This document shows, piece by piece, positions 27,148 through 59,836 of a DNA stretch of 64,000 nt. Under the pieces are notes generated by a model. The model did no database searches and was not told the DNA's origin. It was given only the letters and a program-made list of their open reading frames with translations. Position 1 is the stretch's first letter; each line of letters begins with the position of its first letter. Source of the stretch: Deltaproteobacteria bacterium (lineage in GTDB: Bacteria > Desulfobacterota > Binatia > UBA9968); contig VBKE01000002.1 of NCBI GenBank assembly GCA_005879605.1, positions 5,379 through 69,378 on the forward strand, read 5' to 3'. Position numbers and translations under genes: made by a program.

Positions 27148-27228
27148 GCGGCAAACCGAATGAGCTTGACAGGCAATGATTCGTTATCGCGCGACCTGGA
27201 TTGGCTTCACAATTCAAAGGAGGTAAAG

Positions 27229-31631: not shown

Positions 31632-32630
31632 TCATTTTTCATACAGCTTCTTGATAAACCCGCCTTTATCGAGCTCCTCGACAAAACTCGGATCCACGAA
31701 CTCCTCTGGCTTGTGTTTATAGACATCCGGCCGCGTCAGTGCGACGTATTCGTAGCTAGTCTTCATTCCCTTTGTATTAGGGTAGGGAGCGGGCAGCCGG
31801 TATTTGGCGAACAGCTCCCATGACTCCTGGGCCAACGAATCGTCGTCCAAGCGAAGTGTTTTCTTGATCACCTTCTTGGCGAATTCAGGATCCTTTTTGA
31901 AAAGCGCAATCCCCTCAAGGTGGGCTCGCATATATCGCATCACCAGGTCGCGATCGCGTTGAATTTGGGAGCGCGTCGTTGCAATCTCGCTCCAGGGATA
32001 CTCGACTTCTTTGAAAAAATCCCAGAGCAACGTAAAGCCCGCTCTCTGGGCGAGGATGAATTGCGGGTGTCCTAGGGTTGCCGCCGGAATCTTACCCAGC
32101 TTCAGAGCGAGCAGTCGCTCCGAGTCGGTGCCGATCTGCAGGAGCGCAAAATCTTTATCCGGATTGAGCCCCTTTATTCTGGCAAGATGGCGCACGAGAA
32201 AATCCGCGAGCGAGCCGAACGTTGTGACCCCAATGGTTTTTCCTTTGAGATCTTCCGTTTTCTTGATGTCGGGCCGCACCATGAGCGATTGAATGACCCC
32301 GGGCATCGTGTGGGCCAAGATCACCATGTCGGAGCCCGCCAGCACCGCACTCATAACCGCCGGAGTAGTGATCGGCGAGATCGCCACGCTGCCTGCGACG
32401 AGAGCCCTGGAAGCTATGCCGGAGCCTTGCATAACGACGACATCCGCGTCGAGACCGTGCTTTTCAAAGAGCTTCGCCTCCTGAGTGAAAAAAATAATCA
32501 TATTGCCCATGCTGACGGCGGGGACACCGACGTGGATCTTCTTCAGTCCTTTACTCTGGGCAAAGCTCGTCGATGATAAAGCAAGGGCTCCAAGAAGCAT
32601 CAACGACAACATGAATCGACGGTGAATCAT
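31632..32630 (-). CDS. NMT1/THI5-like ABC substrate-binding protein
   Basis: Signal peptide, FEKHGLDADVV, DLKGKTIGVT. Its C-terminus is nearly identical to that of 41360-42364. Confidence 0.75.
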   Translation of the reverse strand: MIHRRFMLSLMLLGALALSSTSFAQSKGLKKIHVGVPAVSMGNMIIFFTQEAKLFEKHGLDADVVVMQGSGIASRALVAGSVAISPITTPAVMSAVLAGSDMVILAHTMPGVIQSLMVRPDIKKTEDLKGKTIGVTTFGSLADFLVRHLARIKGLNPDKDFALLQIGTDSERLLALKLGKIPAATLGHPQFILAQRAGFTLLWDFFKEVEYPWSEIATTRSQIQRDRDLVMRYMRAHLEGIALFKKDPEFAKKVIKKTLRLDDDSLAQESWELFAKYRLPAPYPNTKGMKTSYEYVALTRPDVYKHKPEEFVDPSFVEELDKGGFIKKLYEK

Positions 32631-32744
32631 AAATACCCCAGTTCAGAGCATCTCTGTTGGCATATAGTCCTGACTTTCGAGACTTGTCAATGTAAAACGC
32701 CAACGTTGACAAACTCTACCGTTTTGAATAAGTCAAAAACCATC

Positions 32745-33764
32745 ATGTTGCCCAAAGTAGCCCGAGACACCCTGCTGGATTTTTGCCGCCGGATGTTCGT
32801 CATTCGCCACTTCGAAGAGAGTTTGGTTCCGCTCCACGACAAAGGAGTTTTCGGCGGACATTATCATCTTTACATCGGCCAAGAAGCCACCGGAGTTCCC
32901 GCGCTCTCGTGTCTCAGAGCGGACGATTATCTTTTCACCACGCACAGGAATCATGGCCATCTGCTCGCCCGCGGCGCCGATCCGAAGAAACTCTGCGCGG
33001 AAATCTTGGGGCGCGCCGACGGCTATAACAAAGGCAAGGGCGGATCGTTTCATACCGTTGTTCCTTCATTGGGTTTTCTCCATACTTCTGCCGTCGTCGC
33101 CGGTATCATTCCACTCGCCACCGGCGCGGCATACGCGTCGAAGGCGCTGAAGAACGGCCGCATCACCGTTTGCCTCTTCGGCGACGGCGCGTTGGAAGAA
33201 GGCGCTGCCCCCGAGGCCTTCAATCTGGCATCGCTTTGGAAGCTTCCTGTGCTGTTTCTCTGCGAGAACAACGGCAAATACGGCGCCGGTCGGGCCACGG
33301 GCGCCGCGCAGTCATCGACGATGGCGGCCCATCCGCTGACCGACCTTCCCAAAGCGTACAAAGTTCCGGCGCAGCAGGTTGATGGCCTCGATTCGGGCAC
33401 GGTTCATGCCACCATTTCACAAGCGGTCGAAAAGATTCGCCGCGGTGAAGGGCCGCAGTTCATCGAGGCGCAAACCGTGCGCTGGCCCGGCAGTGAAAGC
33501 AACTGGCCGGTGGTATTGCAGAATACCAACGCGTCGCTGGCCTGGGACGTTAATGCCGTTCCGGAAAAAGTGCGCGAGTGGTATCGCTCGTGCGATCCGC
33601 TATTGATCTACACTCGGGAGCTGGTCGAAGCGAAGCAAGCCACGCGTGAAGAGATTGCTGCGATCGATAGAAAAGTCAAAGCAGAGATCGATGAAGCGGT
33701 GAAGGTCGCCGTGTCGAGTCCATATCCGAAGCCCGAAGAGGCGGCAAAGGATTATTTTGCCTGA
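32745..33764 (+). CDS. ThDP-dependent 2-oxoacid/acetoin dehydrogenase E1 component, alpha subunit (pair 1)
   Basis: ATG at 32745. YIGQEA, HRNHGH, ThDP motif GDGALEEG..x..LCENNG. Confidence 0.8.
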   Translation: MLPKVARDTLLDFCRRMFVIRHFEESLVPLHDKGVFGGHYHLYIGQEATGVPALSCLRADDYLFTTHRNHGHLLARGADPKKLCAEILGRADGYNKGKGGSFHTVVPSLGFLHTSAVVAGIIPLATGAAYASKALKNGRITVCLFGDGALEEGAAPEAFNLASLWKLPVLFLCENNGKYGAGRATGAAQSSTMAAHPLTDLPKAYKVPAQQVDGLDSGTVHATISQAVEKIRRGEGPQFIEAQTVRWPGSESNWPVVLQNTNASLAWDVNAVPEKVREWYRSCDPLLIYTRELVEAKQATREEIAAIDRKVKAEIDEAVKVAVSSPYPKPEEAAKDYFA

Positions 33765-33771
33765 GTCAATT

Positions 33772-34743
33772 ATGAGAGAGCTTGCCTACTACGAAGCCAA
33801 GTTCGAAGCCTTGCATGAAATCATGGCCGCCGATGAGCGCGTGCATCTGATCAACGGTACTTTCTTAAGTTTGAGCCCGCACCGTCACGTCTTTCAGGAC
33901 CTCGTGAAAAAATATGGTGACCGCATGAAATCGCCGCCGATATCTGAACTCGGCTTCTGCGGTCTGGCTACCGGCGCCGCGATGGCAGGCCTCAGGCCGA
34001 TTGTCGACATCAGCACCGGCAGTTTCATTTTCGAAGGCTGGCCACAAGTCTGCAACGAAGCCGCCAATGCTTTTTCCATGTCGGCCGGGCAAACCCGTGT
34101 GCCCGTGGTTTTCCACCTCTTTCACGGCCTCCGCGGCGGCGGCGCCGCGCAGCACTCCGCCAGCCCGCAAGCGATGCTTTGGAACAATCCAGGACTTGAG
34201 ATCGTCCTGCCCTCTTCTCCAAGAGATGTGAAGGGACTCCTCAAAACTGCCGTCGCCAGCGATAACCCGACGATCTTTGTCGATCACGTGCAGCTTTTGG
34301 AGATCCGTGGCGAAGTGCCTGACAACGACTCGCCGATTCGCTTTGGTCAAGCCGATATCAAGCGCAAAGGCAACGACGTCACGGTGATCTCCACCTCCTA
34401 CATGGTGCAGCGTTGCTTGCAAGTTGCCGACAAGCTGGCTGGGGAGAAAATTAGCGTGGAAGTCGTGGACCCGCGCACCTTGGTGCCCTTTGATATGGCG
34501 ACGCTCATGTCATCGGTGGAAAAAACCGGCCGCGTCGTCATCGTCGATGAAACGCACCAGAGCTGCGGGGTTGCCGCGGAGATCGCGGCACGCATCGCTG
34601 AAAGCGGTTTCGACAAGCTCAAAGCGCCAGTCCGCCGCGTCGCCACGCTCGACGTGCCGGTTCCCTATAGCCCGCCTCTGGAAGAGTACATCGGTCCGAG
34701 AGAAGATCGGATTATCGAAGCTATCCGCGCAGTCCTCCGCTAG
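33772..34743 (+). CDS. E1 component beta subunit (pair 1)
   Basis: Transketolase-like Pyr and C-terminal domains (PISELGF.G.A.GAA, VVDPRTLVPFD). An alternative start lies at 33757. Confidence 0.8.
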   Translation: MRELAYYEAKFEALHEIMAADERVHLINGTFLSLSPHRHVFQDLVKKYGDRMKSPPISELGFCGLATGAAMAGLRPIVDISTGSFIFEGWPQVCNEAANAFSMSAGQTRVPVVFHLFHGLRGGGAAQHSASPQAMLWNNPGLEIVLPSSPRDVKGLLKTAVASDNPTIFVDHVQLLEIRGEVPDNDSPIRFGQADIKRKGNDVTVISTSYMVQRCLQVADKLAGEKISVEVVDPRTLVPFDMATLMSSVEKTGRVVIVDETHQSCGVAAEIAARIAESGFDKLKAPVRRVATLDVPVPYSPPLEEYIGPREDRIIEAIRAVLR

Positions 34744-34780
34744 TCGCTCGCGACTATTGCTTCCTTCCGGTCGAGAACCC

Positions 34781-35749
34781 ATGGCAAAAAAAGCGCAAAA
34801 TCAGAAGGAATTTGTGTCCCTCCTGCGCAACATGTACCTCATTCGTGCGTTCGAGGAGAAAGTTTCTGCGCTTTATGCCGCGCGGGAGATTGTCGGCTTG
34901 CTGCATCTCGGAATCGGCCAAGAGGCGGTGGCGGTTGGAACCTGTGCTCAACTCAGACAAGACGATTATGTCTTCGGTAGCCATCGTTCTCACGGCCATG
35001 CCATCGCCAAAGGAGCGGACATCAATCGACTGATGGCGGAGATCGCCGGCCGCGCGACTGGTTACTGCGCAGGCAAGGGCGGTTCGATGCATATCGTCGC
35101 CATGGATGCAGGCTTCGTCACGGCCACCGGCGTTGTCGGCGGCACGATCCCGCTTGCTTTAGGAGCGGCGTTTGCCGCAAAGGAGCGAAGCAAAGGACAA
35201 GTCGCAGTCGTCTTTTTCGGTGACGGTGCCGGACAGGCCGGCGCGTTTCACGAATCCCTCAACATCGCCAGCTTATGGCGGCTACCAGTGATCTTTGTCT
35301 GCGAGAATAACGGCTACGCAGAATTCACTCCGCTGTCGGCTCACACTAAAGTCGAACGGTTGGCCGAGCACGCCAAGACGTACGGGATTCCGAGCCGCAC
35401 CGTCGACGGCAACGATCTTTTAGCGGTGCATGATGCGATCGGCAAAGCTCTAAAACAGGCGCGCGCTGGCAAGGGACCGACGTTTGTCGAATGCCTGACT
35501 CATCGCTTGCGCGGTCATTACGAAGGTGATCCGGCAAAGTACCGCGAGCTATCGGAGCTCGCCGAATGGAAGAAAAAAGATCCTGTCGCTCGCTTTACCC
35601 GTGAGCTTAAACGTCGAAAAAAGATATCCGACAAAGAGATCGAAGCCATCGAAGCCGAGGCCCGCGACCGCACCGAAAAGGCGGCCGAGTTCGCTCTTTC
35701 CTCCCCATGGCCGGCGCCCGAAGAAGTCGACAGCCAAGTGACAGCGTAA
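34781..35749 (+). CDS. E1 component alpha subunit (pair 2)
   Basis: ATG at 34781. LHLGIGQEA, HRSHGH, GDGAGQAG..x..VCENNGYA. The ORF-track start at 34424 overlaps beta-1 and is rejected. Confidence 0.8.
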   Translation: MAKKAQNQKEFVSLLRNMYLIRAFEEKVSALYAAREIVGLLHLGIGQEAVAVGTCAQLRQDDYVFGSHRSHGHAIAKGADINRLMAEIAGRATGYCAGKGGSMHIVAMDAGFVTATGVVGGTIPLALGAAFAAKERSKGQVAVVFFGDGAGQAGAFHESLNIASLWRLPVIFVCENNGYAEFTPLSAHTKVERLAEHAKTYGIPSRTVDGNDLLAVHDAIGKALKQARAGKGPTFVECLTHRLRGHYEGDPAKYRELSELAEWKKKDPVARFTRELKRRKKISDKEIEAIEAEARDRTEKAAEFALSSPWPAPEEVDSQVTA

Positions 35750-35821
35750 TGGTAACCATTTGCCTTACAAGCAGCACGACTCAGCCCGATGAAGTTCGTT
35801 TAAAAGTCGATGTGCGATTTC

Positions 35822-35919
35822 CGTCATTGCCGCGGAAGCGGCAATCCAGGCTTGTGTTGAAGTTCCTGGATTCCGGCTCGCGCTACCCCGGACTCTGATC
35901 CGGGGTTGGCCGGAATGAC
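35822..35919 (-). repeat. Family A palindromic element (longer copy with GTCATT-type termini)
   Basis: CCGTCATTGCCGCGGAAGCGGCAATCCAGG ... CCTGGATTCCGG..CCCCGGACTCTGATCCGGGG..CCGGAATGAC. Matches 16484-16560. Confidence 0.65.
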
Positions 35920-36027
35920 ACAATGGATACGACCATGACAACGCTCTTCCCTGTCACTCTGAGCGCCGGCAAAGGGTCTCGCCCGATGGAGAGTTCCTTC
36001 GGCTTTGCCTAACAAGACGTTGTAACT

Positions 36028-37005
36028 ATGCCACAGCAAACCTATCTGGAAGCGATTCGCTCGGGATTACACGAGGAGATGAGCCGCGACCCATCGGTCT
36101 ATCTTTTCGGGGAAGACGTTGCTCTCGGCGGGCCGTTCGGGGTAACCAACGGATTGGCGGAAGCATTTGGCAAAAACCGGGTCGTCAATACACCGATCAG
36201 CGAAGGCACGGTCACGGGACTCGCCATCGGCGCGGCGACAGCGGGACTTCGTCCCGTCGTCGAGATCATGTTTATCGATTTCATCACTCTAGCGATGGAT
36301 CAGCTCGTCAATCACGCCGCAAAGCTCCATTACATGTCCGGCGGACAGCTCAAAATCCCATTGACCGTCCGAGTCCAGTGCGGCATCAGCGGCACCATGG
36401 GCGCGCATCATTCCCAGAGCCTCGAGTCCTGGATCACTCATGTGCCCGGATTGAAGGTCGTCATGCCCTCCACTCCCGCCGACGCCAAAGGGCTGCTCAA
36501 AGCCGCCATCCGCGACGACAACCCGGTCGTCTTCATCGAGCATCGAGGTCTGTATTGGTCACGCGGTGCAATTGCTGACGGCGATCACGTCGTTCAAATT
36601 GGCAAAGCATCCGTCGTGAGAGCCGGTGACCAAGTAACGATTGTCGCTCTTGCTAAAATGTTGCAGCCTGCTCTGGAGGCAGCGGAAGAACTTTCCTCTG
36701 AAGGTATCGCCGCGGAAGTCATCGACCCACGTAGCCTCTCCCCGCTGGATACCGAGAGCATTGTCGCGTCAGTCAAGAAAACCACGCGGCTTGTCCTTGC
36801 CCATGAAGCTGTCGAACAGAGCGGCATCGGCGCTGAGATCGCGGCCAAAGTTCAGGAAGCCGCTTTCTACTATCTCGATAGTCCGATCATTCGCGTCGCC
36901 GCGCCCTTCGCTCCGGTTCCCGCCAGCCCGGCGCTAGAAAAGACATTCCTGCCGGGAAAGCAACGTCTCATGGAAGCCGTTCACAGAGTGTTAAGCGGGG
37001 CCTGA
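36028..37005 (+). CDS. E1 component beta subunit (pair 2)
   Basis: FGEDV..GG.FGVT, PISEG...G.AIGAA, VIDPRSLSPLD. Confidence 0.85.
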   Translation: MPQQTYLEAIRSGLHEEMSRDPSVYLFGEDVALGGPFGVTNGLAEAFGKNRVVNTPISEGTVTGLAIGAATAGLRPVVEIMFIDFITLAMDQLVNHAAKLHYMSGGQLKIPLTVRVQCGISGTMGAHHSQSLESWITHVPGLKVVMPSTPADAKGLLKAAIRDDNPVVFIEHRGLYWSRGAIADGDHVVQIGKASVVRAGDQVTIVALAKMLQPALEAAEELSSEGIAAEVIDPRSLSPLDTESIVASVKKTTRLVLAHEAVEQSGIGAEIAAKVQEAAFYYLDSPIIRVAAPFAPVPASPALEKTFLPGKQRLMEAVHRVLSGA

Positions 37006-41359: not shown

Positions 41360-42364
41360 CTACTTCTCGTAAAGCTTTTTAATGAACCCGCTTTTGTCGA
41401 GCTCTTCGACGAAGCTCGAGTCCGCGAATTCTTCAGGTTTGTGCTTCCAGACGTCCGGGCGAGTGGCCGCGACGTATTCGAAACTAACTTTCATTCCCGC
41501 TAGATTCGGATAGGGCGTCGGTAAGAACATTTTGGAAAAAATGTCATAAGACTCGTTAATCAACTCGTCATCATCTATCCGCAGCGTCTTCTTGATCACT
41601 TTTATGCCGAAGTCACGATCCTTCTTGAAACGGGCGATGCCTTCGAGGTGCGCTTTCATATAATTCATGATCGTCTCGCGGTCGGCCTTGATATTCGCCC
41701 GACGCGTCGTGATTTCCATCCAGGGATAATCAAGCTCCTTCGCCGAGTCCCAGAGCATGGTGAAGCCCATTTTTTTGGCCCGACCGTATCCCGGGTGGGA
41801 CATCGCCGCCCCGTCTACAACGCCGCTTTTGAGCGCCACAATGCGATCAGAGTCGCTGCCGGTCTGGATTAGAGTCAAATCGCGGTCAGGATTGAGCCTT
41901 TTTTTCTTGGCAATGGCACGGACCAGGAAGTCCGTGAGGGAACCCAAGCTGGATACCGCGATCTTTTTCCCCTTCAAGTCCTCAACCCGTTTGATCTCAG
42001 GCTTCACCATCAGCGCGTGAACCACGCCGGGCATGGTGTGAGCCAAAATAACCATGTCCGAACCAGCTAGATCCGCGGCGATAACGGTCGGTGTCGCAAC
42101 CGGCACGATATCGAGATTTCCGCCGATCAGCGCCTTCGATGCGATGCCGGAGCCGTTGATCGCAATAACCTCGGCGTCGAGCCCATACTTCTCGTAAAGT
42201 CGCGCCTCTTTGGTGACATAAATGATAATGTTAGCAACGCTGACGGAAGGAACTCCGACGTGGATCTTTTTAAACGGCTTTCCTTGAGAGAAAGCCGAGA
42301 AAGGAAAGGCTAGCGACATAGAAAAAAAGATACCCAGAAAAAGCCTGACGCTTCGCGCCGCCAT
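41360..42364 (-). CDS. NMT1/THI5-like ABC substrate-binding protein
   Basis: ATG at 42364. Signal peptide, YEKYGLDAEVI, DLKGKKIAVS. Confidence 0.75.
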   Translation of the reverse strand: MAARSVRLFLGIFFSMSLAFPFSAFSQGKPFKKIHVGVPSVSVANIIIYVTKEARLYEKYGLDAEVIAINGSGIASKALIGGNLDIVPVATPTVIAADLAGSDMVILAHTMPGVVHALMVKPEIKRVEDLKGKKIAVSSLGSLTDFLVRAIAKKKRLNPDRDLTLIQTGSDSDRIVALKSGVVDGAAMSHPGYGRAKKMGFTMLWDSAKELDYPWMEITTRRANIKADRETIMNYMKAHLEGIARFKKDRDFGIKVIKKTLRIDDDELINESYDIFSKMFLPTPYPNLAGMKVSFEYVAATRPDVWKHKPEEFADSSFVEELDKSGFIKKLYEK

Positions 42365-42387: not shown

Positions 42388-44307
42388 TCAAACTTTTCGC
42401 GTGCGCAGCTGCGCGATTCGAATCGCCGGGGTCCACGGTTTTTCCGCCCAGGCTGCGCCCGTTCGCCTGACCTCGGCGTCGATGAGATACGGCTTACCAT
42501 CCTGAGTGGCCCTGCGCGCTCGGGCGAGAGCCTCTTTGAGTTGCCCGGGGGATTCGACCTTTTCTCCTGAAACTCCGAACCCCCTCGCGATATCCGCCAT
42601 GTTCATGTTCGGATCGCCGAGATAATCGTGGAAGAACTTCCCGGTCGCGACCATCCGTCCATCGGGTACGTTTGCAATGGCACGGCTATGCGGGCCCGCG
42701 TATGCGTGATTATTGTAGACCACGGTGACTACCGGCAGCTCCAAGCGCGCCATGTTCCAGAGCGCCGTCGGGCCGAAAATGAAAGAACCGTCTCCGACTA
42801 AGCAAATCACCTGCTGGTTGGGTCGGGCCAGCTTCACCCCAGCCGCAGTTCCCACGCCGGAACCGAGGTGCGAACCGTAATAGAAAAACAGCTCGCGTCC
42901 ACCGATGGGGTTAAAGTCGAAACTGTGGAGTCCGATGGATCCGGCTTCATGAACGATGATGGCGTCCTTTTCCGCGAATTGCGCCACCTCGTAAGTCAGC
43001 CGGTCCGCCAGTAGTGGACTGTTGTTCCAGTCGGGGTTCTTTACCAACTGCGCTCTAAGCTTCTTATTGCGCTCTGTCGCTTTGCGGACTTCTTCGCTCC
43101 GTTCTTGCACCTTGGCTTTAATCGCCGGTGTCATCATGCCGTCTACCGCAACCATAAGATCGTCGAGGCCATAAGCGACGTCGGCAACCAACGGCGCCTC
43201 GGTGGTGATGACGTTTCCCATGCTCCAACTATCATTCCGTAAGTCGATGAACTTGACCTGGCGTGGAACCATGGGCGCAGTGCTGTTATGTTGGAGTTTG
43301 TTTCCGACGTTGATCACCACGTCCGGGGTTTTAGGAAAAGCGAGAGTGTCGATCCTGCCGCCGGGAAGCGCGCCGACCCACATGGGATGGCTCTCCGGAA
43401 AGCTGGCGAATATCTGTCTTGCCTGGGTCACGGACATGCCCAACATCTCCGCCAGCTTGACCGCTTTGCTCGCCGCCTTGGCTTTATAAACTTCATCACC
43501 GACAATCATCAGCGGAGTCTTCGCCTCAACGAGAACTTTGGCCGCCCGTTCGATTTCCTTGGGATTCGGTCTTACCCGCATGCGCGGATCGACTTTATCC
43601 TGCGTGATAATCTCGGTGCGGATCTTTGCCTGGTTAAAATCGGCATGCCATGAGGCGTAGGTGGGACCGTAGGGAGGCGTCCATGCCGCTTTAAAGGCGC
43701 GGCGCACCGTCTCAGGAAGCATTTCAGGGCGGCGGGCCAGCCAATAGTATTTGGCGAGCGGCGCAACGATCTGCTCCTGATTCGCCACTTCTTCGAAGCC
43801 GTCACGTCCTGCGGCGCCGCTTTGTTCCGACCGATAGCTATAGAAAACCAGCGGGGTCTGCTCCTTGAAAGCATTAAACATCTGCCCCATCGCGTTCATC
43901 AGACCGACGGAACCCGCCTGCATCACGATGGAGGGCTCCCCCGAAGCCTTCACGTAGCCCGCCGCCATGGCCGCGCCCGGACCTTCATGCGGAGTTAAAA
44001 TGTATTGAAGCTGCGACCGGTCAACGAGCGCATCATAAAACTCGGCATCCTCGCTGGCAGAGTTGCCAAAGACATACTGGACGCCCGAGGCGATCAACTG
44101 CTCCGCGAAAGCCGCCGCCGCGGTGCCTTGAAATATCTTCACTCCTTCCGGCCCGCCCCTGCGGACCTCTTGCGCCTGGGCAACCGCGGAGACGGAATCG
44201 AGTATGGACTGCGCGGCAGCGATGGACACGCCCGCAGTGGTCAGTCCTTTGAGAAAACCGCGTCGAGAAATCGATTCTGACAGGTACCGAGCGACTAATT
44301 CTCTCAT
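42388..44307 (-). CDS. ThDP-dependent enzyme (acetolactate synthase/PoxB superfamily) with N-terminal twin-arginine signal peptide
   Basis: ATG at 44307 after AAAGGAGG. SISRRGFLKG, a hydrophobic region and AVAQA; HEGPGAAMAAGY; GDGSFIF..x..VYNNHAY. Confidence 0.8.
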   Translation of the reverse strand: MRELVARYLSESISRRGFLKGLTTAGVSIAAAQSILDSVSAVAQAQEVRRGGPEGVKIFQGTAAAAFAEQLIASGVQYVFGNSASEDAEFYDALVDRSQLQYILTPHEGPGAAMAAGYVKASGEPSIVMQAGSVGLMNAMGQMFNAFKEQTPLVFYSYRSEQSGAAGRDGFEEVANQEQIVAPLAKYYWLARRPEMLPETVRRAFKAAWTPPYGPTYASWHADFNQAKIRTEIITQDKVDPRMRVRPNPKEIERAAKVLVEAKTPLMIVGDEVYKAKAASKAVKLAEMLGMSVTQARQIFASFPESHPMWVGALPGGRIDTLAFPKTPDVVINVGNKLQHNSTAPMVPRQVKFIDLRNDSWSMGNVITTEAPLVADVAYGLDDLMVAVDGMMTPAIKAKVQERSEEVRKATERNKKLRAQLVKNPDWNNSPLLADRLTYEVAQFAEKDAIIVHEAGSIGLHSFDFNPIGGRELFFYYGSHLGSGVGTAAGVKLARPNQQVICLVGDGSFIFGPTALWNMARLELPVVTVVYNNHAYAGPHSRAIANVPDGRMVATGKFFHDYLGDPNMNMADIARGFGVSGEKVESPGQLKEALARARRATQDGKPYLIDAEVRRTGAAWAEKPWTPAIRIAQLRTRKV

Positions 44308-44332
44308 CGCAACCTCCTTTGGCCAGCCCGCA

Positions 44333-44650
44333 TTACTTCGACGTCTTGCCGGATGTCGGTCCAAAAACTGTGCTTAGATAGGTAGCCATACTCTCGATCT
44401 CATCGTCAGTCCAAAGCGCTCCCCGTCCCATCATCCGGTAGAGCACTCCTTCCCATGCCGTTTTGTCCTGGTGGAGATTTCTCCAAATTCGATCGTTGTG
44501 ACATTGGAAACAGCGCGACATAAGCACGTCTTTGCCCGGACCGTCCGGGAACGCTGGATCCTCGGCTGACTGCGCCAACTTCCCTCCTGCCATGAAGCCA
44601 ATTAGAAGTCCTGACAGAGAAAAAAGAAAAAACACGCGGTGCAATGACAT
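44333..44650 (-). CDS. Monohaem c-type cytochrome with N-terminal signal/anchor helix
   Basis: A single CFQCH motif, a downstream Met-rich segment (YRMMGRG) and a hydrophobic N-terminus. Confidence 0.75.
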   Translation of the reverse strand: MSLHRVFFLFSLSGLLIGFMAGGKLAQSAEDPAFPDGPGKDVLMSRCFQCHNDRIWRNLHQDKTAWEGVLYRMMGRGALWTDDEIESMATYLSTVFGPTSGKTSK

Positions 44651-44722
44651 TATGCTCCCTCCTAAGAATGTACGAACGCGCAGAGATTACTGCCATGCGG
44701 ATCAACGTGTCAACGGCGGCGT

Positions 44723-46471
44723 TTAAACAGCCTGAATGTAAACATCCACCAGCGCCGGTCGCTTTTCTTCTTTGATCACTCTCAGAGCGCGATCCAACGC
44801 GGGGCGGATTTTGTCCGGCTCGGTGATAGGCCCTTCGCCGGCAATGCCAAAGGACCGGGCGAGATTGGCAAAGTCCACGGGCGGTTTTTCCATGCGCATC
44901 CCGACGACTTTATTTTCCGGCGGGCGGCCGCGTGCGATAGCAATTTTTTCCTGGTGTTCTTCGTCGTTGTAGTAAGTGCGATTGTTGGTCATCACGGTGA
45001 GCAACGGCACGCCGGTGTTTGAAGCCGTCCAGAGAGCGCTCGTGGTGTAAAGCAGTTCGCCGTCGCGTTGGAGATTGACGCAGATCGTTTCCGTCCCGCG
45101 GTACGGAAGCGCCGCGCCGACCGACGCCCCCGGGCCGTAGCCTAATCCGCCGCCGCCGTAGCCGCCGAGAAAGAGTCCTGGCTTGTCCCAGTTCCACAGT
45201 CTGCCAGGCCAGCCTCTGAAACCGCCGGCCACAAGCAACCACGATTCATTCTTAATTGCTTCCCAAACTTCGTGGGCGAGCCGCGGCGGCGAGACCGGCC
45301 TCTCATCCCAGCGCTTCTTGAGGTCGCTCTGCCAGCGCGCGCGGACCTCGTCGTGCTGGACGGCAAAAGTTTTGCGCCTCTCCTCGACTACGCTCCTGGA
45401 AAATTTTCCCTGCCGCTTAATCTCTTCAATTAATGCCGGGAGAAAAACTCTGGTGTTGGCCACAATCGGCAGATCCACCGGCGCAAGCTCTTGAAAGTCG
45501 GTGGTCCAGCCGCGCATGGAAATATCCGCGAGCGTTACATGAATGACTTTGCAGCCCGGTTTGATGGCCGGTACAGTGCTGTGCGCGGCAGGATCCTGCC
45601 GCACCAGCGAGCCAAAGAGATCCATGACGTCGAGCCCGAGAACGACATCGGCGTTGCTTACCAGCTCGCGATTTTTACCGGTGAGGTTAAGGGAATGCGT
45701 GTTGGGAAAATTCAGCCGCGCACCGAGATCGATGACCGGTATCGACAGGAGATCCGCCAGCTCCACCAGACTCAACACCGCCCCATTATCTCTTCCCAGA
45801 TAGTCGGCGAGAATCACCGGGTTCTGCGCTTCGGAAAGCAACCGCGCCGCTTCTTTGATCGCATCAGTCTCTGCCTGCAGCGGCGCCGGCGGGCGAAAGC
45901 GCGCCGGATCCGGAAGCGGAATTTCTTTTTCCAGCGCCGACTCTTGATCGGTCACATCGAAGCAAAGATAAATCGGACCGGCTGGGTCGCTCATAGCGAT
46001 GCGGTAGCCACGCATCATGGACGAAGGAATGGATTCGATACCAACGGGTTGGTCGTCCCATTTGACGAAGTCGCGCACCAAATTTCCCTGAACCAGCGCC
46101 GTGTGAATCCAGTCGATCCACGGCCGCCGTTTGCTCGTGTTCATGGGGCCGGTGCCGCCCATGACCAGGATCGGCGTACGGTCACACCAGGCGTTGTAGA
46201 TCGCCATGGAAGCATGCTGCAGACCAACGACGTTGTGCACGATGGCGGCCATCGGCTTGCCGGTAGCCTTGGCATAACCGTGCGCGACCGCGACGGCGAT
46301 TTCTTCGTGGCAGCAGAGAATGATTTCAGGATTGGCTTGGCGGCCGCTCTCGTAATTAACGAGAGAATCGTGAATGCCGCGAAAGCTCGAACCGGGATTA
46401 AGCGCGACGTATTCGATGCCCAGGACTTTCAGCAGATCGACGATGAGATCCGATCCATAACGTGCGGCCAT
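44723..46471 (-). CDS. ThDP-dependent enzyme (ALS/PoxB superfamily), no signal peptide
   Basis: ATG at 46471 after GGAGG. CCHEEIAVAVAHGY catalytic Glu region; three-domain length. Confidence 0.8.
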   Translation of the reverse strand: MAARYGSDLIVDLLKVLGIEYVALNPGSSFRGIHDSLVNYESGRQANPEIILCCHEEIAVAVAHGYAKATGKPMAAIVHNVVGLQHASMAIYNAWCDRTPILVMGGTGPMNTSKRRPWIDWIHTALVQGNLVRDFVKWDDQPVGIESIPSSMMRGYRIAMSDPAGPIYLCFDVTDQESALEKEIPLPDPARFRPPAPLQAETDAIKEAARLLSEAQNPVILADYLGRDNGAVLSLVELADLLSIPVIDLGARLNFPNTHSLNLTGKNRELVSNADVVLGLDVMDLFGSLVRQDPAAHSTVPAIKPGCKVIHVTLADISMRGWTTDFQELAPVDLPIVANTRVFLPALIEEIKRQGKFSRSVVEERRKTFAVQHDEVRARWQSDLKKRWDERPVSPPRLAHEVWEAIKNESWLLVAGGFRGWPGRLWNWDKPGLFLGGYGGGGLGYGPGASVGAALPYRGTETICVNLQRDGELLYTTSALWTASNTGVPLLTVMTNNRTYYNDEEHQEKIAIARGRPPENKVVGMRMEKPPVDFANLARSFGIAGEGPITEPDKIRPALDRALRVIKEEKRPALVDVYIQAV

Positions 46472-46588: not shown

Positions 46589-47677
46589 TCAATGAATTGC
46601 GGCCGATTGGGACACCGCCTCTAACGGCTGGGGGACTTCCATGTCGTAGAGCTTCGCCACGTTCGTGCAGACAAGTTTCTTGCGCACGTCTGCTGGCAAG
46701 TGCCCTAGGTCGCGATCGATATATTTTTTAGATTCCGGCCAGGTCGAGTTGCCGTGCGGATAGTCATTGGACCACATGCAGTTGTCCTGACCCCACCATT
46801 CGAAACTATGCCCAGCCACGGTGTCTCGGAAGAACGTCCCATAGACTTGACGGTTGAAATATTCGCTGGGGTTTTTCGTAATCGGCGGAGGATTCACACC
46901 CTTGAATCTGTTGTAGTAGTAATCCCACTGCTGCAGCATAAACGGCATCCAACCGATCTCGTTCTCCACACTGACGAATCGAAGCTTAGGGTAGCGCTCC
47001 AAAACTCCGTAAAAGATAAGCTCAAAAAAAGCATCCGTAATCTCCTTGAGCTTGAGGTTAACGCTGCCTCGGTAGTGCTCGACCCCCGTCCTCTTCTTAC
47101 CGAACACGGTTTCCTTGTGGTAGCCATGCCCGGTAAGGATATGCAAGTTGACGGGCATGTTCAGATCCTGGGACGCCGCCCAGAACTTATTGTAATGCTC
47201 CGAGTGAAACGGCAGGTCCGGATGCGGCGCTTGCCAGATGATCGATCCCTTAAGGCCAGCTTTGGTACAGCGCTCGAGCTCTTTTACCGCCTCATCGATG
47301 TTGTAAACCGAGATAGCGGCAATACCGATCAGGCGCTTGGGCGCCACCTGACAATACTCGATCAACCAATCGTTGTACGCCCGGAAGCAGGCCTCCTGCA
47401 GTTTAGCGTCGTCCATGGCGAAGTGCGGCAGCAGATTGGTCGGGTATAGCACTTCTGCGCTGAGACCATCGGTTTCCATCTCTTTGATTCGACACGTTGG
47501 ATCAGACCCTCCGGGATGGGTCTGAAAACTTTCTCCGACTTTGAGCACAGGAAAAATAGGAGCTTGGTCTCGCAATGCCGGCGCAACCCTCTCCTTCAAA
47601 GTGTTGGGTGGCTCCATCACGTGCGAGTCTGAAGAAATCAGCACTTCTAAACCTGAGTCATTTCCATTTCCAGACAT
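46589..47677 (-). CDS. Amidohydrolase_2 family protein
   Basis: ISSDSHVMEP, NLHILTGHG, WSNDYPHGNSTWP. Confidence 0.75.
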   Translation of the reverse strand: MSGNGNDSGLEVLISSDSHVMEPPNTLKERVAPALRDQAPIFPVLKVGESFQTHPGGSDPTCRIKEMETDGLSAEVLYPTNLLPHFAMDDAKLQEACFRAYNDWLIEYCQVAPKRLIGIAAISVYNIDEAVKELERCTKAGLKGSIIWQAPHPDLPFHSEHYNKFWAASQDLNMPVNLHILTGHGYHKETVFGKKRTGVEHYRGSVNLKLKEITDAFFELIFYGVLERYPKLRFVSVENEIGWMPFMLQQWDYYYNRFKGVNPPPITKNPSEYFNRQVYGTFFRDTVAGHSFEWWGQDNCMWSNDYPHGNSTWPESKKYIDRDLGHLPADVRKKLVCTNVAKLYDMEVPQPLEAVSQSAAIH

Positions 47678-50633: not shown

Positions 50634-51629
50634 CTAGAAGAGTCCTTCCTTTTCTAACTTCTTTGCAATCCGTTCGTCGATGATATCCTCGACTTTCAGG
50701 CGGCGGATTTGCTCGTTGCTTCTACCGAGGATGCGGATCACGTTGCGGAGTCCGTCTACGTTGGCGTAAATCCGCCGGTCATAAAGCACTTTCATCATTT
50801 CATAGCCAGCCTCGGCGTCTTCCACCTTTGACAGGCGCAAGGTGCGCATCAAACTTCGGACGACAACAGGTTTGTTCTCAGGGTTATTGATGAATTTTAT
50901 CGTCTCGATCATCGCTCTGAGATAGCGCTCCACGGTATCGGGCGAGCGATCGACAAAGCTCCGCCGCGCCATGATTCCCAGACCCTGAAAGGGGATACAG
51001 AGCTTGAGAAGATCGGCGAGGACGCGGAACCCCTGGCGCTCCAACTGTGCGCCGAACGTGTAGCCGAGATACGCGCCGTCGATAATCCCTCCGGTCGCGA
51101 GCGCTTGAGCCATAACCGACTGATCTCCGATGATGCGAAATTGAATGTTGTCACGCTCGGGATTGAGACCCCAATGATCGAAAGCCAGCATGCTGAACAT
51201 CCACACGCCGCCGCCGATGCTTTGCACGCCGATCTTTTTGCCCTTCAAATCCGCAGGCGTCTTGATGTTGGGCGCGACCACGAATGTGCCATCGAGTTTG
51301 TTAATCAGACCCGCGACGAAGACCAAATCGAGTCCGCCGGCCATCGCGCCGATGGACGCGCCGGTCGCCGAGCCGCCGTGGAACTGCGTCTCGCCGGCGG
51401 CCAGGGCTGACAATCCGACCGCGCCGCTCCGGACGTTGACCACCTGGGCATCAAGCCCATGCTTTTGGAAGATCCCGGCATCTTTAGCGACAAAAAGCAC
51501 GCCGCTCCGCTCATTCAGGCCGCCATAAGTCACGACGATCTTCGCCGGCGCGGAGGCCGCACGGGAGAACAAAGGCATAGAGAGAAGAAGTGTGACTGTG
51601 ACGAGCACTGGCTTAAAAGAAACCTTCAT
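50634..51629 (-). CDS. NMT1-like ABC substrate-binding protein
   Basis: Signal peptide, FQKHGLDAQVV, DLKGKKIGVQS. Confidence 0.7.
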   Translation of the reverse strand: MKVSFKPVLVTVTLLLSMPLFSRAASAPAKIVVTYGGLNERSGVLFVAKDAGIFQKHGLDAQVVNVRSGAVGLSALAAGETQFHGGSATGASIGAMAGGLDLVFVAGLINKLDGTFVVAPNIKTPADLKGKKIGVQSIGGGVWMFSMLAFDHWGLNPERDNIQFRIIGDQSVMAQALATGGIIDGAYLGYTFGAQLERQGFRVLADLLKLCIPFQGLGIMARRSFVDRSPDTVERYLRAMIETIKFINNPENKPVVVRSLMRTLRLSKVEDAEAGYEMMKVLYDRRIYANVDGLRNVIRILGRSNEQIRRLKVEDIIDERIAKKLEKEGLF

Positions 51630-51717
51630 AGACCCTCCTTCTGCCGATTTGTGGCTCTTGTCGGTTTACCGGTGAAAGACTTACTTACCACAGGACCTGA
51701 GCAGAGCACGCAGAGTT

Positions 51718-51810
51718 CCGTCATTCCCGCATGCTTTTAGCGGGAATCCAGGCCAGACCGGAACTGGACCCCCGATTAAAACATTCGGGGGTGACGCCTT
51801 TGGGAATCGC
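51718..51810 (+). repeat. Double-hairpin intergenic element (family C)
   Basis: Hairpin TTCCCGC-ATGCTTTTA-GCGGGAA followed by CCCCCGA-TTAAAACA-TTCGGGGG. The first hairpin is related to GTCATTGCCGCGGAAGCGGCAATCCAGG at 35823-35850. Confidence 0.6.
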
Positions 51811-51891
51811 AGCCTTATGTTGTAATACCTGGCAACTTGCTGGGGCAATCTATTTTCTCTCCGCGTCCTCCGCGGTAGATGCTAAAGAGGC

Positions 51892-52905
51892 TTATTTGTA
51901 AAGAGCGTCGATATAGCCGCTCTGGTCGAGATCCCTGACTACAGACATGTCGATGAACTGTTCGGGATTCGCCGTTTTAGCGGCCGGGTTTCTCTCGCCA
52001 ATCTCTTCGAGCGCCAGTTGGATTCCCTTGATTGGAGTATAAGGCCTCTTGAGAAAGGTTTTGGCGGCAAAGTCGTAGCCATATTCGATCTTTTCTATAT
52101 CGTTGCTCTTTGTGTAGCGGGCGATGACGTCCATGGAAAACTTTTTGTTGTTGGTGTAGAAACTCACTCCCTTGGTCATGCCTTTGACGAACCGCTGAAC
52201 GGTCTCCTTCGACTCCCGGATAAACCTTCGCGTCGTGACGACATCGCTGTTCAAGGCTTCAACGCCGAACTCCAAAAGGTTCAGTAGAACGTTAAAGCCC
52301 ATTTTCTTGGCAACCATCATCTCCTCGAAGGTAAGCGCAGTCCCGTCAGCGACGCCGTTGGCTAGCGCGGCCATTCTGACCGGCGAAGAGCCAATCTGAA
52401 TGATCGCCACGTCTTTGTCGGGGACCAATCCGATCTTCTTAAGAATCAGTCTGAGGATAAAATCCGAAGAAGCGCCGAGCCGGCTCACCGCCAATTTTTT
52501 CCCTTTAAGCTGCGCGGGTTGGGAAATTCCTTTCGCGGTGACGAGAAAAGCCTGAGCCGGATCTTTTTTTGTGCTCGCCGCTATGACGAGATCCGATCCC
52601 GCGAGTTGCGAATTGATCGCCGCAGTGCCGGACATGATCGCGATCGGCACATCCCTGGCGATCACGGCTTGCGATAAAATGCTCGAGCTGCCGATGAAAA
52701 TAAGCTGCACGTCGAGACCATTCTCTTTGAAGAGCCCGGCCTCTTTGGCAACCCAAACGAGCGACTGGCCCACCCCGATCGAGGAATAGCCGACCTTGAT
52801 TCGTGTAACCTGAGCACTTGCAACCGAAGCGAAAATCAAGCAAAGAGTTGCAGCAAACGGTACGATCATGATTGGCTTATATTTCATTCTCTTCCTTCGC
52901 GCCAC
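51892..52905 (-). CDS. NMT1-like ABC substrate-binding protein
   Basis: Signal peptide, FKENGLDVQLI, QLKGKKLAVS. The start is 52905 or 52887. Confidence 0.7.
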   Translation of the reverse strand: MARRKRMKYKPIMIVPFAATLCLIFASVASAQVTRIKVGYSSIGVGQSLVWVAKEAGLFKENGLDVQLIFIGSSSILSQAVIARDVPIAIMSGTAAINSQLAGSDLVIAASTKKDPAQAFLVTAKGISQPAQLKGKKLAVSRLGASSDFILRLILKKIGLVPDKDVAIIQIGSSPVRMAALANGVADGTALTFEEMMVAKKMGFNVLLNLLEFGVEALNSDVVTTRRFIRESKETVQRFVKGMTKGVSFYTNNKKFSMDVIARYTKSNDIEKIEYGYDFAAKTFLKRPYTPIKGIQLALEEIGERNPAAKTANPEQFIDMSVVRDLDQSGYIDALYK

Positions 52906-55061: not shown

Positions 55062-56102
55062 TCATCTGATCACCTTATCCGCCATCGCCAGCATCTTTGG
55101 CGGCATCACGAGACCGATCTGCTTGGCGGTCTTCAAATTGACCGTGAAAATAAACTTGGTCGGATACTCAATAGGCAGCTCGGCTGGCTTTGCCCCTTTC
55201 AGAATCTTGTCCACGAAAATGGCGGCTCGGCGATACGAGTCCGTGAGATCTGCGCCAAATGACATAAGGCCCCCAGCCTCCACAAATTCCTTTGTTGGGT
55301 ATATTGCTGGCAGCCGACTCTCTGACGCCAGCTCGACGATGCGTGCTCGTTGACTCACGACCAGCGGGTCCAGCAGGGTCACGAGACCCATCCCGCGCTG
55401 CTTGGGTACGTTTTTGAACGCGGGGGCGAGATCCTCGCTGCGTCGCACCTCTAGGGACTGGACTGATAACTTCAACACCCGGACTGCGTCTTGCATTTCT
55501 CGGAAGGCAATCGCTGTCCCTGGATTGGCTGCATTCCAGAGGATGGCGATGCGAGAGAGCTTAGGGACGGCTTCCTTGAGCAATTCGAGCTGCTTCCCGC
55601 TGTAGTCCGGGGATGCGCTGCTCAAGCCCGTGACGTTACCGCCGGGTCGAGCGAGGCTCGCGACAAGCCCGAGCGCAACGGGATCTGCGCTGTGCACGAT
55701 AATGATTGGAATGGTTGCGGTCGCTTGTTTGGCAGCCTTGACCGCGGGCGTAGCGGCGGCGACTATGATGTCAACCCGGAGACGGATCAGGTCGGCCGCC
55801 AGCGCCGGTAGTCGCTCCTCCCTATCATCGTCAAACCGCTGCTCAAGAGCGATGTTCTTGCCCTCCACGTAGCCCCGCTCGCGCAGCCCCTGCTGGAAGG
55901 CTTCGAGCCGGGTCATGAGAGAGGTAGAAGTACCCTGCAATAGAAGACCAACGCGCGGCGCTTTCATCGGCTGCTGCGCCTCGGCCGACGAGAGAGTCGG
56001 CAGAAAGACAGTTAGCAGTAGGCAGGTAAGAGTCTGTTTGATGATCTGTTTTGCACCCGATTTCTTACTGCTAACTGCTTGCTGCTGTCTGCTCGCTGTC
56101 AT
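55062..56102 (-). CDS. ABC_sub_bind (COG2984) substrate-binding protein, B-type copy 1
   Basis: RVGLL.., FQQGLRERGYVEGKNI, SLARPGGNVTGLS, DKILKGAKPAELP, ADKVIR. The start ATG overlaps the upstream stop (ATGA). Confidence 0.8.
   Translation of the reverse strand: MTASRQQQAVSSKKSGAKQIIKQTLTCLLLTVFLPTLSSAEAQQPMKAPRVGLLLQGTSTSLMTRLEAFQQGLRERGYVEGKNIALEQRFDDDREERLPALAADLIRLRVDIIVAAATPAVKAAKQATATIPIIIVHSADPVALGLVASLARPGGNVTGLSSASPDYSGKQLELLKEAVPKLSRIAILWNAANPGTAIAFREMQDAVRVLKLSVQSLEVRRSEDLAPAFKNVPKQRGMGLVTLLDPLVVSQRARIVELASESRLPAIYPTKEFVEAGGLMSFGADLTDSYRRAAIFVDKILKGAKPAELPIEYPTKFIFTVNLKTAKQIGLVMPPKMLAMADKVIR
56065..56099. repeat. Five tandem heptamers TnnCTGC
   Basis: TTACTGC TAACTGC TTGCTGC TGTCTGC TCGCTGT sit immediately 3' (on the minus strand) of the coupled ATG. 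Confidence 0.6.
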
Positions 56103-57082
56103 TTGATCACCTTGTCTGCCCGGTACAGCACAGACTGCGGAATCGTGACCCCGATTTGCTTCGCCGCTTTGAGGTTGATGACCAGCTCGAACTTTGCCGG
56201 GGCTTCAACGGGCAGATCCGCCGGCTTAGCTCCTTTCAGGATCTTATCTACATACGTCGCGGCCCGCCTGTGCATGCCCGGGTAGCTTGGCCCATAGGAC
56301 ATCAAGCCACCTGCTTCGACCAACTCCTCGTATGCATGCACCCCTGGTAAGCGATTTTGAGTGGCGAAGTCCATGATGCGCGCGCGGTTGTGCAGGAACA
56401 GGCGATCCGCCAATACGAGGAGCGCACCCGGCCGGTCTCTGCGAATTATCGCAAACGCATTGTCGAACTGCTCCTGCGCTTGCACCCCGAGGGAGAGCAC
56501 TTTTATTCCCATCGCGTGAGCAGCCGCCTGCGTCTCCCTTTCCCCCACCACCTGCAAAGGGCTGGTGGGGTTCCAGAGTACAGCAACGTGCGAGATTTTA
56601 GGGACCACTTCCCTAAGCAGCTCCAACCGCTTCCCGTCTAGCTCCGGTGAGATCGAGGTCAACCCGGTGAGGTTTCCGCCAGGGTGAGCGAGGCTTGCGA
56701 TGAGGCCAGTCCCCACTGGGTCGCCGACGGCGATCATGACAAGGGGCAAGGTCGTTGTCGCCTTCTTGAGAGCGATCGTGGCGGGCGTGCCGGCGGTAAC
56801 GATCAGGTCAACGTTAAGGGCGATCAGCTCGGCGATAAGGGTGGGAAAGCGCTCATACTTTCCCTCGGCCCATCGCCACTCAATGACGATGTTTTTACCC
56901 TCGATATAGCCAAGGTCACGCAACCCTTCGCGAAACGGCCCGACGAGATTCTCCTCAAGCGCAGGGGTAGAGTTCCCCAGAAAACCTATCCGGGGGATTT
57001 TCTTTGGCTGCTGCGCTTCCGCGAGATGGACCGACACGAGAATTAAAGTTGCTAGAAATGAGACGACGATCTTTTTATTCAT
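56099..57082 (-). CDS. ABC_sub_bind (COG2984) substrate-binding protein, A-type copy 2
   Basis: MNKKIVVSFLATL signal, FREGLRDLGYIEGKNIVIEWRWAEGK, ADKVIK. Confidence 0.8.
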   Translation of the reverse strand: MNKKIVVSFLATLILVSVHLAEAQQPKKIPRIGFLGNSTPALEENLVGPFREGLRDLGYIEGKNIVIEWRWAEGKYERFPTLIAELIALNVDLIVTAGTPATIALKKATTTLPLVMIAVGDPVGTGLIASLAHPGGNLTGLTSISPELDGKRLELLREVVPKISHVAVLWNPTSPLQVVGERETQAAAHAMGIKVLSLGVQAQEQFDNAFAIIRRDRPGALLVLADRLFLHNRARIMDFATQNRLPGVHAYEELVEAGGLMSYGPSYPGMHRRAATYVDKILKGAKPADLPVEAPAKFELVINLKAAKQIGVTIPQSVLYRADKVIK

Positions 57083-57160
57083 CGAGTTTCTCCGCCAATC
57101 GAAAATCCAAAACCTGTGGTGAGCCCTTCGGCTGAACTCAGGATAAACTCCGTCGAACCA

Positions 57161-59184: not shown

Positions 59185-59218
59185 CGGTTTCTCCGCTTTC
59201 TATTGCAATCAAAATCCC

Positions 59219-59827: not shown

Positions 59828-59836
59828 GGCAACCTC

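Follow-up and report, generated by a model that had tools for sequence, protein, structure and literature searches.

A conserved gene pair of uncultured bacteria encodes a candidate Tat-exported thiamine diphosphate enzyme and its putative cytochrome c partner

Introduction

Can a thiamine diphosphate (ThDP) enzyme work in the periplasm and hand its electrons to a c-type cytochrome? This question was raised by a stretch of 64,000 nucleotides (nt) from a Binatia genome (assembly GCA_005879605.1, contig VBKE01000002.1), here called the window. In it, the gene for a 639-aa enzyme of the three-domain ThDP decarboxylase superfamily with a twin-arginine N-terminus (RR-ThDP; 42388..44307, minus strand) follows the gene for a 105-aa monohaem c-type cytochrome with a Sec-type signal peptide (44333..44650, minus strand). 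The original prediction, drawn from the DNA alone, was that an enzyme exported through the Tat (twin-arginine translocation) pathway might catalyze an oxidative decarboxylation or C-C cleavage in the periplasm and deliver the electrons to the cytochrome. To our knowledge, the place of ThDP enzymes is considered to be the cytoplasm or an organelle, and their known natural oxidants are flavin adenine dinucleotide (FAD), lipoamide and iron-sulfur clusters.

In the analysis described here, the genomic evidence was best explained by a periplasmic ThDP enzyme handing electrons to a c-type cytochrome. With moderate confidence, the products of the two genes (44650..44333 and 44307..42388) are proposed to form a periplasmic dehydrogenase of two components, in which the Tat-exported enzyme would pass electrons to the cytochrome; the direction of electron flow, the export and the absence of a flavin are inferred.

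Results

A scan of species-representative genomes for close relatives of RR-ThDP gave 215 genomes with a relative, and the loci of the best 80 (67–82% identity) were analyzed. All of these 80 belonged to metagenome-assembled or single-cell genomes, with taxa including Binatia, Burkholderiales, Usitatibacter, Xanthobacteraceae and other Hyphomicrobiales, Acidobacteriota and others. Four further loci, from three protein look-ups, completed a combined set of 84 loci, and adjacency was counted in the 77 of them that had at least 330 nt of upstream sequence. A cytochrome homologue was observed directly upstream of the enzyme gene and on the same strand in 75 of the 77, with a median gap of 40 nt, and within 2.2 kb in all 77. 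An overlap between the stop and start codons of the two genes was often seen among the close-family loci, and the paired loci spanned several phyla and classes. The two exceptions to direct adjacency, at a distance of ~2 kb, were both from Burkholderiales or Betaproteobacteria (L033, 2661–4729; L059). The insert in L033 consists of two lipoprotein-like genes, one of which has a protease-like HExxH motif and TPR-like repeats.

The linkage was also observed outside the close family. In a metagenome scan of a second subfamily, whose enzyme is ~36% identical to RR-ThDP, an open reading frame (ORF) with one or two CxxCH haem motifs was located directly upstream of the enzyme gene in 40 of 67 loci, and one of the five distant contexts looked up had an overlapping dihaem cytochrome. 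In the reverse look-up, two cytochrome homologues, a 179-aa dihaem form and a 104-aa form, were both encoded immediately upstream of a ThDP gene of 630–634 aa. The expectation that the cytochrome would accompany the enzyme in related genomes was borne out by these counts.

The dihaem partner cytochromes were found to be two tandem copies of one domain (for example, CDSCH plus CFQCH) and were present at L085 (6001–6540), at L089 (5354–6004) and in 13 loci among L097–L176. Some of them match PF09098 (Dehyd-heme_bind) weakly or faintly, and many run into the beginning of the ThDP gene. Two apparent cytochrome-ThDP fusions, P0124 and P0163, were discarded, as their N-terminal extensions were out-of-frame read-through gene calls.

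The 105-aa protein of the window has the features of a class I c-type cytochrome, namely a CxxCH motif (CFQCH, residues 47–51, 44498..44512, minus strand), a distal Met ligand (Met73) and an export signal; the original prediction of a signal helix followed by a single CFQCH was read as such at 44650..44333. The CFQCH, Met73 and a WEGVLYRMxGRGALW motif were invariant in 43 homologues, all of which have a hydrophobic Sec-type N-terminal signal ending in an AxA-type site. Of the 108 detected members of this family, most are of 95–113 aa and have no Pfam match. Comparison with described families gave only scores below the cutoffs (Cytochrome_CBB3, 15.7 of 27 bits; Cytochrom_C, 15.4 of 21.3; SorB, 16 of 93), and the best match of a Foldseek fold search was SorU, with an E-value of 0.46. 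Assignment to a known family by hidden Markov model (HMM) or by fold was consequently rejected, the SorB, SorU and cytochrome c6 matches all being below threshold. The adjacent arrangement of a subunit with a Tat signal and a cytochrome with a Sec signal, which is typical of two-component dehydrogenase:cytochrome pairs, was found here. Judged by its gene context, this cytochrome is the dedicated partner of RR-ThDP.

The same linkage bears on a different explanation, in which RR-ThDP is exported by Tat to the periplasm and catalyzes a non-redox reaction there (decarboxylation, carboligation or C-C cleavage), while the cytochrome works for a different enzyme of the pathway or shares no more than its regulation. 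Cytochrome-less relatives do exist. Other subgroups in the second-subfamily scan, amounting to several Tat-ThDP subfamilies, had no adjacent cytochrome, so the Tat-ThDP clade as a whole need not be redox-active. Moreover, the comparison of cytochrome-linked with cytochrome-less members pointed only to P539 and L590, both plausibly phylogenetic, and no residue signature tracked the linkage. These results tell against an electron-transfer function. On the other side, conservation as a group is limited to these two genes, with no recurrent third dehydrogenase; they remain neighbors, in many cases with the stop codon of one overlapping the start codon of the other, in different phyla and in a second subfamily; and the cytochrome family was found only beside these enzymes in the contexts examined.

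Export was addressed through the N-terminus of RR-ThDP. The protein starts with MRELVARYLSESISRRGFLKG and reads MRELVARYLSESISRRGFLKGLTTAGVSIAAAQSILDSVSAVAQA up to the putative cleavage point, where the next residue is Q. Residues 1–45 (44173..44307, minus strand) would form a Tat signal peptide composed of the n-region MRELVARYLSES, the motif SRRGFLK (residues 14–20), a weakly hydrophobic segment GLTTAGVSIAAAQSIL and a cleavage site between AQA and Q. The twin-arginine start at 44307, the AxA site and the lack of another Met until deep in the catalytic domain had all been predicted, and the next Met is indeed residue 114. Since a Shine-Dalgarno sequence (GGAGG, 44313..44317, minus strand, 5–6 nt before the ATG at 44307, within an AAGGAGG located 6 nt ahead of it) precedes this ATG, the start codon that includes the twin-arginine signal is supported; an AGGAGG is also present ahead of the cytochrome ATG. 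Two Tat-signal models were used on this N-terminus, TIGR01409 (TAT_signal_seq) and Pfam TAT_signal, and the first of them was passed with 26.1 bits (cutoff 16.7; E-value 7.5e-6).

The twin-arginine N-terminus was retained far beyond the window. Among the matches listed, all 120 close homologues (74–99% identity) open with MRELV...SRRxFLK and conserve an [AV]-x-A site 28–30 residues past the arginine pair. The motif was also present in 114 of 117 distant homologues from a profile search of distant members, and the other three look truncated at the N-terminus; altogether, 234 of 237 listed homologues keep it, down to ~30% identity. Homologues starting downstream of the arginine pair, which would have undermined the original prediction, were not what the alignments gave: in a 24-sequence alignment reaching 28% identity, R15, R16 and F18 were invariant, and so were Glu108, D506/G507 and N532/N533. 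An exhaustive search of 50%-identity cluster representatives yielded ~25 full-length relatives (30–47% identity, 630–650 aa), all with the N-terminal extension. The next-best relatives (550–565 aa, up to 34% identity) lack it and start straight at the PYR domain. Because the extension is kept in near and distant homologues, the Tat-type N-terminus defines a large and deep clade. The same members share a C-terminal tail, which in RR-ThDP comprises residues 616–639 (42391..42462, minus strand), ends in ...KPWTPAIRIAQLRTRKV and contains the near-invariant Trp625. The tail motif DSTW(Y/H)P..S(V/L)A..R.R.V was confined to Tat-type members (0 of 77 non-Tat relatives), and W625 was at least 90% conserved in alignments of the clade. 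Cytochrome docking, electron relay or membrane contact are possibilities for this Trp tail.

Alternatively, the N-terminal segment could be a Tat-like element that is vestigial or has been retained, as is the case in NarG, and that binds a chaperone or forms a structural helix in an enzyme that stays in the cytoplasm or on the inner face of the membrane. Several features of the segment are awkward for export and agree with this explanation. Tat signals are expected to have ~13 or more uncharged, moderately hydrophobic residues followed by an AxA cleavage site. In 90 of the 120 close orthologues, the uncharged run after RRxFLK is only 12 residues long and ends in Glu; in most orthologues Glu, Lys or Arg closes this short run, at what is a conserved polar or charged position, so that the hydrophobic region has charged flanks; an amphipathic segment, S(I/V)LxSL, comes next, and then the [AV]-x-A. 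The Pfam TAT_signal model remained under its cutoff, the stricter of the two (15.9 against 22.7 bits). The n-region (residues 1–12, 44272–44307; MRELVARYLSxS) is more conserved than the catalytic domains, with identities of 0.86 against 0.73–0.83 among near homologues and of 0.47 against 0.32–0.44 among distant ones. Finally, residues 1–45 were modeled by AlphaFold2 (AF2) as three helices with a predicted local distance difference test score (pLDDT) of 80–86, compared with 55–57 for the Sec signal of the cytochrome. Such features would also fit a retained structural or chaperone-binding element.

A Tat signal with a proofreading chaperone attached to its n-region would agree with them as well. 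Proofreading chaperones bind the n-regions of the hydrogenase, DmsA and NapA signals, and the unusually conserved n-region of this clade may serve such a proofreading step. Against retention in the cytoplasm, both arginines and the Phe at +2 are invariant, whereas vestigial Tat signals typically lose them; the TIGR01409 model is passed; the AxA-type site is kept at the expected distance; and the protein of the window has an uncharged stretch of 16 residues before AQA. Furthermore, the obligate partner is a Sec-exported c-type cytochrome, functional only in the periplasm, and outer-membrane receptor genes flank distant members. Taken together, retention of the enzyme in the cytoplasm was considered quite unlikely.

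The receptor genes were observed in three of the five distant contexts, the one with the overlapping dihaem cytochrome among them, where a gene of the TonB-dependent-receptor type is directly upstream of the enzyme or of its cytochrome. These genes encode CarboxypepD_reg plus beta-barrel proteins (L089, 2047–5187; L090, 2655–5360; L092, 2711–5989), and L089, one of the three, has a TonB_C gene downstream as well. They hint, independently of the other evidence, at a periplasmic site of action for these enzymes, and their linkage suggests that outer-membrane substrate uptake is coupled to periplasmic processing.

As predicted, RR-ThDP is a complete three-domain ThDP enzyme. The Pfam models TPP_enzyme_N, M and C were all above their gathering cutoffs (TPP_enzyme_M, E-value 1e-18), and the same three models were matched above the cutoffs by ThDP-1, a second ThDP enzyme encoded upstream. 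RR-ThDP keeps the HEG glutamate that activates the ThDP aminopyrimidine (Glu108, codon 43984..43986, minus strand; invariant in two alignments), which aligns with Glu47 of benzoylformate decarboxylase (BFD), and the ThDP/Mg2+ motif GDG-X24-NN (residues 505–533, 42709..42795, minus strand), of which D506, G507, N532 and N533 are invariant; the corresponding motifs of ThDP-1 are HEE and RDG-X24-NN. As far as alignments can tell, the catalytic motifs of RR-ThDP are intact, with Glu108 and GDG-X24-NN invariant across the clade.

No NCBIfam cutoff was reached by RR-ThDP, the best scores being those of PRK08327 (253 of 456 bits) and of BFD (245 of 493 bits). The BFD model (NF005485, EC 4.1.1.7) gave 244.6 bits against 493; of the residues that act in BFD catalysis, it retains Ser26 and Glu47, and His70 and His281 are not matched, the first being replaced by Ala and the second standing opposite Ser in the HMMER alignment. 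The pyruvate oxidase model (NF006377) gave 136.8 bits against 742, and RR-ThDP was accordingly not placed with the PoxB-type enzymes. The three-domain fold was borne out by the AF2 model, which had a pLDDT of 88, and by Foldseek. By sequence and by fold, the nearest structures were 4-hydroxybenzoylformate decarboxylase and BFD, HKA synthase, cyclohexane-1,2-dione hydrolase (CDH) and carboxyethylarginine synthase, with 22–25% identity and TM-scores of 0.8–0.87. Database names of the family are only "thiamine pyrophosphate-binding protein" or "acetolactate synthase-like." By these comparisons the RR-ThDP clade is deep, uncharacterized and nearest to the benzoylformate decarboxylases.

The presence of a flavin was considered next to these assignments, as RR-ThDP might be a PoxB-like flavoenzyme in which FAD held by the middle domain relays electrons from ThDP to the cytochrome. 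The middle domain is present, the FAD-containing CDH is among the structural neighbors, and the known natural ThDP oxidations use FAD, save those of pyruvate:ferredoxin oxidoreductase (PFOR), with its Fe-S clusters, and of the lipoamide-linked 2-oxo-acid dehydrogenases; all of this counts for a flavin. When RR-ThDP was aligned with the FAD enzymes PoxB, Gcl and IlvI of E. coli and with the ADP-binding Oxc, however, the flavin- and ADP-associated motifs were not found in it. Where PoxB, Gcl and IlvI have a glycine-rich turn, G(G/S)G, and the motifs RFxxR and GMxGxxG, which we take to be FAD-binding, RR-ThDP has IVGDEV, NKLQHN and VGALPGG, respectively, and at all three positions it resembles the flavin-free BFD. 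A flavin site is therefore unlikely, to the extent that such motifs predict it. The pyruvate oxidase score (137 bits rounded, far from the cutoff of 742) points the same way, the nearest structures are nearly all flavin-free, CDH being the exception, and the flavoenzyme explanation was held to be very unlikely.

The same evidence lends some weight to a non-redox function, since the closest relatives by structure are without exception non-oxidative (decarboxylases, lyases, ligases) or, in the case of CDH, a hydrolase, and the flavin motifs are absent. Set against the widespread pairing with the cytochrome, a periplasmic enzyme of this non-redox kind was judged unlikely, and a two-component dehydrogenase was retained as the preferred interpretation.

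In the window, the pair belongs to a string of five genes in the same direction on the minus strand, from 47677 to 41360. It starts with an Amidohydro_2 (PF04909) protein of 362 aa (46589..47677), continues with ThDP-1, a signal-less enzyme of 582 aa (44723..46471), the cytochrome and RR-ThDP, and ends with an NMT1/SsuA-like periplasmic substrate-binding protein (SBP) of 334 aa, counted from the Met at 42364 (41360..42364). The successive gaps are 117, 72, 25 and ~23 nt, and no convincing terminator was seen in the intergenic sequence between the five genes. The genes, sizes, coordinates and the 25- and 72-nt gaps of the original prediction were all recovered on the minus strand, with domain matches confirming the amidohydrolase at the head of the string and the NMT1-like SBP at its end.

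The idea of a single gene string stood in part. The five genes are co-directional; as a conserved unit, only the cytochrome and RR-ThDP genes are kept, and the other three are lineage-specific. ThDP-1 orthologues were found upstream in 3 of the 84 loci (L003, L005 and L012), amidohydrolase orthologues in only two (L003 and L012), and NMT1-type SBP orthologues downstream in only six (among them L003–L006 and L011). When the neighborhoods of the 84 loci were clustered to look for another conserved member (for instance a transporter, a chaperone or a cytochrome of the membrane), no gene was found in more than 14 loci, with an ORF set that was noisy in this GC-rich DNA. Neither Tat nor Ccm genes were found in the window when searched for. 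As the flanking genes vary by genome, the pair appears to be self-contained, which suggests a module acting on a common small metabolite.

This variation also decided on the role of ThDP-1, which might form a hetero-oligomer with RR-ThDP and hitchhike through Tat, the five genes being one pathway unit. ThDP enzymes are obligate dimers, the ThDP-1 and RR-ThDP genes are co-directional with short gaps, and synteny is retained in L003, L005 and L012. Hitchhiking on Tat, moreover, has reportedly been established for PaoABC. ThDP-1 orthologues, however, are missing from 81 of the 84 related loci, whereas the cytochrome is always there; the 24% identity between the two paralogues makes a mixed active-site dimer unlikely; and ThDP-1 is of a different, PRK08327-like family (289 of 456 bits). 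With orthologues in so few loci and so low an identity, hitchhiking and hetero-oligomer formation were rejected as extremely unlikely, and RR-ThDP with its cytochrome was kept as the functional unit. A ThDP-1 paralogue, ~53% identical, was noticed 4–6 kb downstream of the pair in L008 (6596–8305), L009 (9734–11128) and L010 (12514–13914), so that the two ThDP families are associated in a loose and variable way.

Elsewhere, the window is rich in solute-binding genes (3813–12247, 17311–20428, 27160–28254, 31632–32630, 41360–42364, 50634–52905 and 55062–60475). Five of them are NMT1-like; four full tandem ABC_sub_bind paralogues and a truncated fifth are located at 55062–60475; and two tandem SBP_bac_5 and three SBP_bac_1/6/8/11 genes were also found. 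Only two BPD_transp_1 permeases, beside the SBP_bac_5 pair, were detected as ATP-binding cassette permease or ATPase genes among the scanned ORFs of the window. In the region 32622–37005, two E1 alpha/beta pairs (E1_dh plus Transket_pyr/Transketolase_C) stand one after the other; they are of the 2-oxo-acid- or acetoin-dehydrogenase type and lack a neighboring E2 or E3 gene. Behind them come genes for an aldo-keto reductase and a further Amidohydro_2 protein. The ORFs 33757–34743 and 34424–35749 overlap by ~320 nt, and one of their starts was probably miscalled. Counted with ThDP-1 and RR-ThDP, the two E1 pairs bring the ThDP-dependent systems to four within 15 kb. Beside the ABC_sub_bind array, at 59219–59827, there is a gene for a protein of the TENA/THI-4/PQQC family (thiaminase II or PqqC-like).

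Discussion

The pair is proposed to act as a cytochrome c oxidoreductase that depends on ThDP and oxidizes a 2-oxo acid (or an aldehyde or a diketone). By analogy with its family, RR-ThDP would fold, dimerize and bind ThDP/Mg2+ in the cytoplasm, and its SRRGFLK signal would then direct the folded protein through Tat. The binding of ThDP between the two subunits of the dimer is non-covalent, and no supply of ThDP to the periplasm is known, so export of the pre-assembled holo-oligomer would be the logical route. The 105-aa cytochrome, with its signal peptide and CxxCH motif, would be exported unfolded by Sec and receive its haem in the periplasm. There, the enzyme would form a hydroxyalkyl-ThDP carbanion/enamine, either by decarboxylation of a 2-oxo acid or by addition to an aldehyde or 1,2-diketone. 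The cytochrome would oxidize this intermediate in two one-electron steps, probably without a flavin, the resulting acyl-ThDP would be hydrolyzed to the carboxylate, and the reduced cytochrome would feed a terminal oxidase. As a strong reductant, the hydroxyalkyl-ThDP enamine is known to give up electrons to artificial acceptors of single electrons.

In its fullest form, the proposal is of a flavin-free and iron-sulfur-free periplasmic ThDP dehydrogenase, exported by Tat as a ThDP-loaded oligomer, whose enamine is directly oxidized by a dedicated cytochrome; that this constitutes a new respiratory class is put forward only tentatively. Two considerations make the direct step harder to accept: no characterized natural precedent is known to us for direct electron transfer from ThDP to haem, and the ThDP site is buried in related enzymes, which bears on the tunneling distance.

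The enzymes closest to RR-ThDP, the benzoylformate and 4-hydroxybenzoylformate decarboxylases (1BFD, 7ORX, 6QSI), share with it the three-domain PYR/middle/PP fold (Foldseek TM-scores of 0.83–0.85), the activating Glu, GDG-X24-NN, the equivalent of Ser26 and the absence of the flavin motifs. They differ in that, besides the 22–25% identity, they are cytoplasmic and lack a signal peptide, a C-terminal Trp tail and a cytochrome partner. E. coli PoxB, which belongs to the same superfamily, oxidizes hydroxyethyl-ThDP and feeds the respiratory chain. It is, however, cytoplasmic and peripheral to the membrane, contains FAD and reduces ubiquinone by means of a C-terminal lipid-binding helix, whereas RR-ThDP lacks the FAD motifs, has a putative Tat signal and presumably uses a soluble cytochrome c as acceptor.

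The general architecture, with its tightly linked and in many cases translationally coupled genes, has better-known counterparts. SorAB, SorT/SorU, flavocytochrome c sulfide dehydrogenase and NicA2/CycN are systems of a Tat enzyme and a Sec cytochrome, in which a cofactor-loaded subunit with a twin-arginine signal is likewise accompanied by an adjacent small mono- or dihaem cytochrome, its dedicated acceptor. In the pair described here, the cofactor would be ThDP rather than molybdopterin or a flavin, the cytochrome belongs to no described family (its matches to SorB, 16 bits, and SorU, Foldseek E-value 0.46, are all weak), and electron transfer is predicted from the gene pair. The combination of a Tat enzyme with a Sec cytochrome is thus already known; what would be new is that the exported cofactor is ThDP and that haem c oxidizes it.

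Transit of a folded ThDP enzyme has a parallel in HACL1, the peroxisomal 2-hydroxyacyl-CoA lyase, which is thought to cross the membrane folded and loaded with ThDP (PMC7463629). HACL1 is of the same superfamily, and 2-hydroxyacyl-CoA lyases are among the structural neighbors of RR-ThDP (8vzk). It differs in being eukaryotic, imported by the peroxisomal targeting signal (PTS) pathway, non-oxidative and devoid of a cytochrome partner. Full-text searches of the literature gave no description of a Tat-exported or periplasmic ThDP enzyme, nor of a ThDP-cytochrome c pair, in agreement with the remark made with the original prediction that no such arrangement was known to have been characterized. 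The fact that all of the members seen are from uncultured bacteria probably explains this lack of characterization.

Since the module consists of two genes, the proposal is directly testable by heterologous expression. If it is true, ThDP would join the short list of cofactors carried by Tat, and the ThDP enamine and haem c would be a new electron-transfer pair. It would also reveal an unrecognized periplasmic route for the oxidation of organic acids or aldehydes in abundant uncultured soil lineages (Binatia, Acidobacteriota, Burkholderiales and Xanthobacteraceae). Small 2-oxo acids or aldehydes could in that case be used as fuel outside the cytoplasm by many soil bacteria that are still uncultured.

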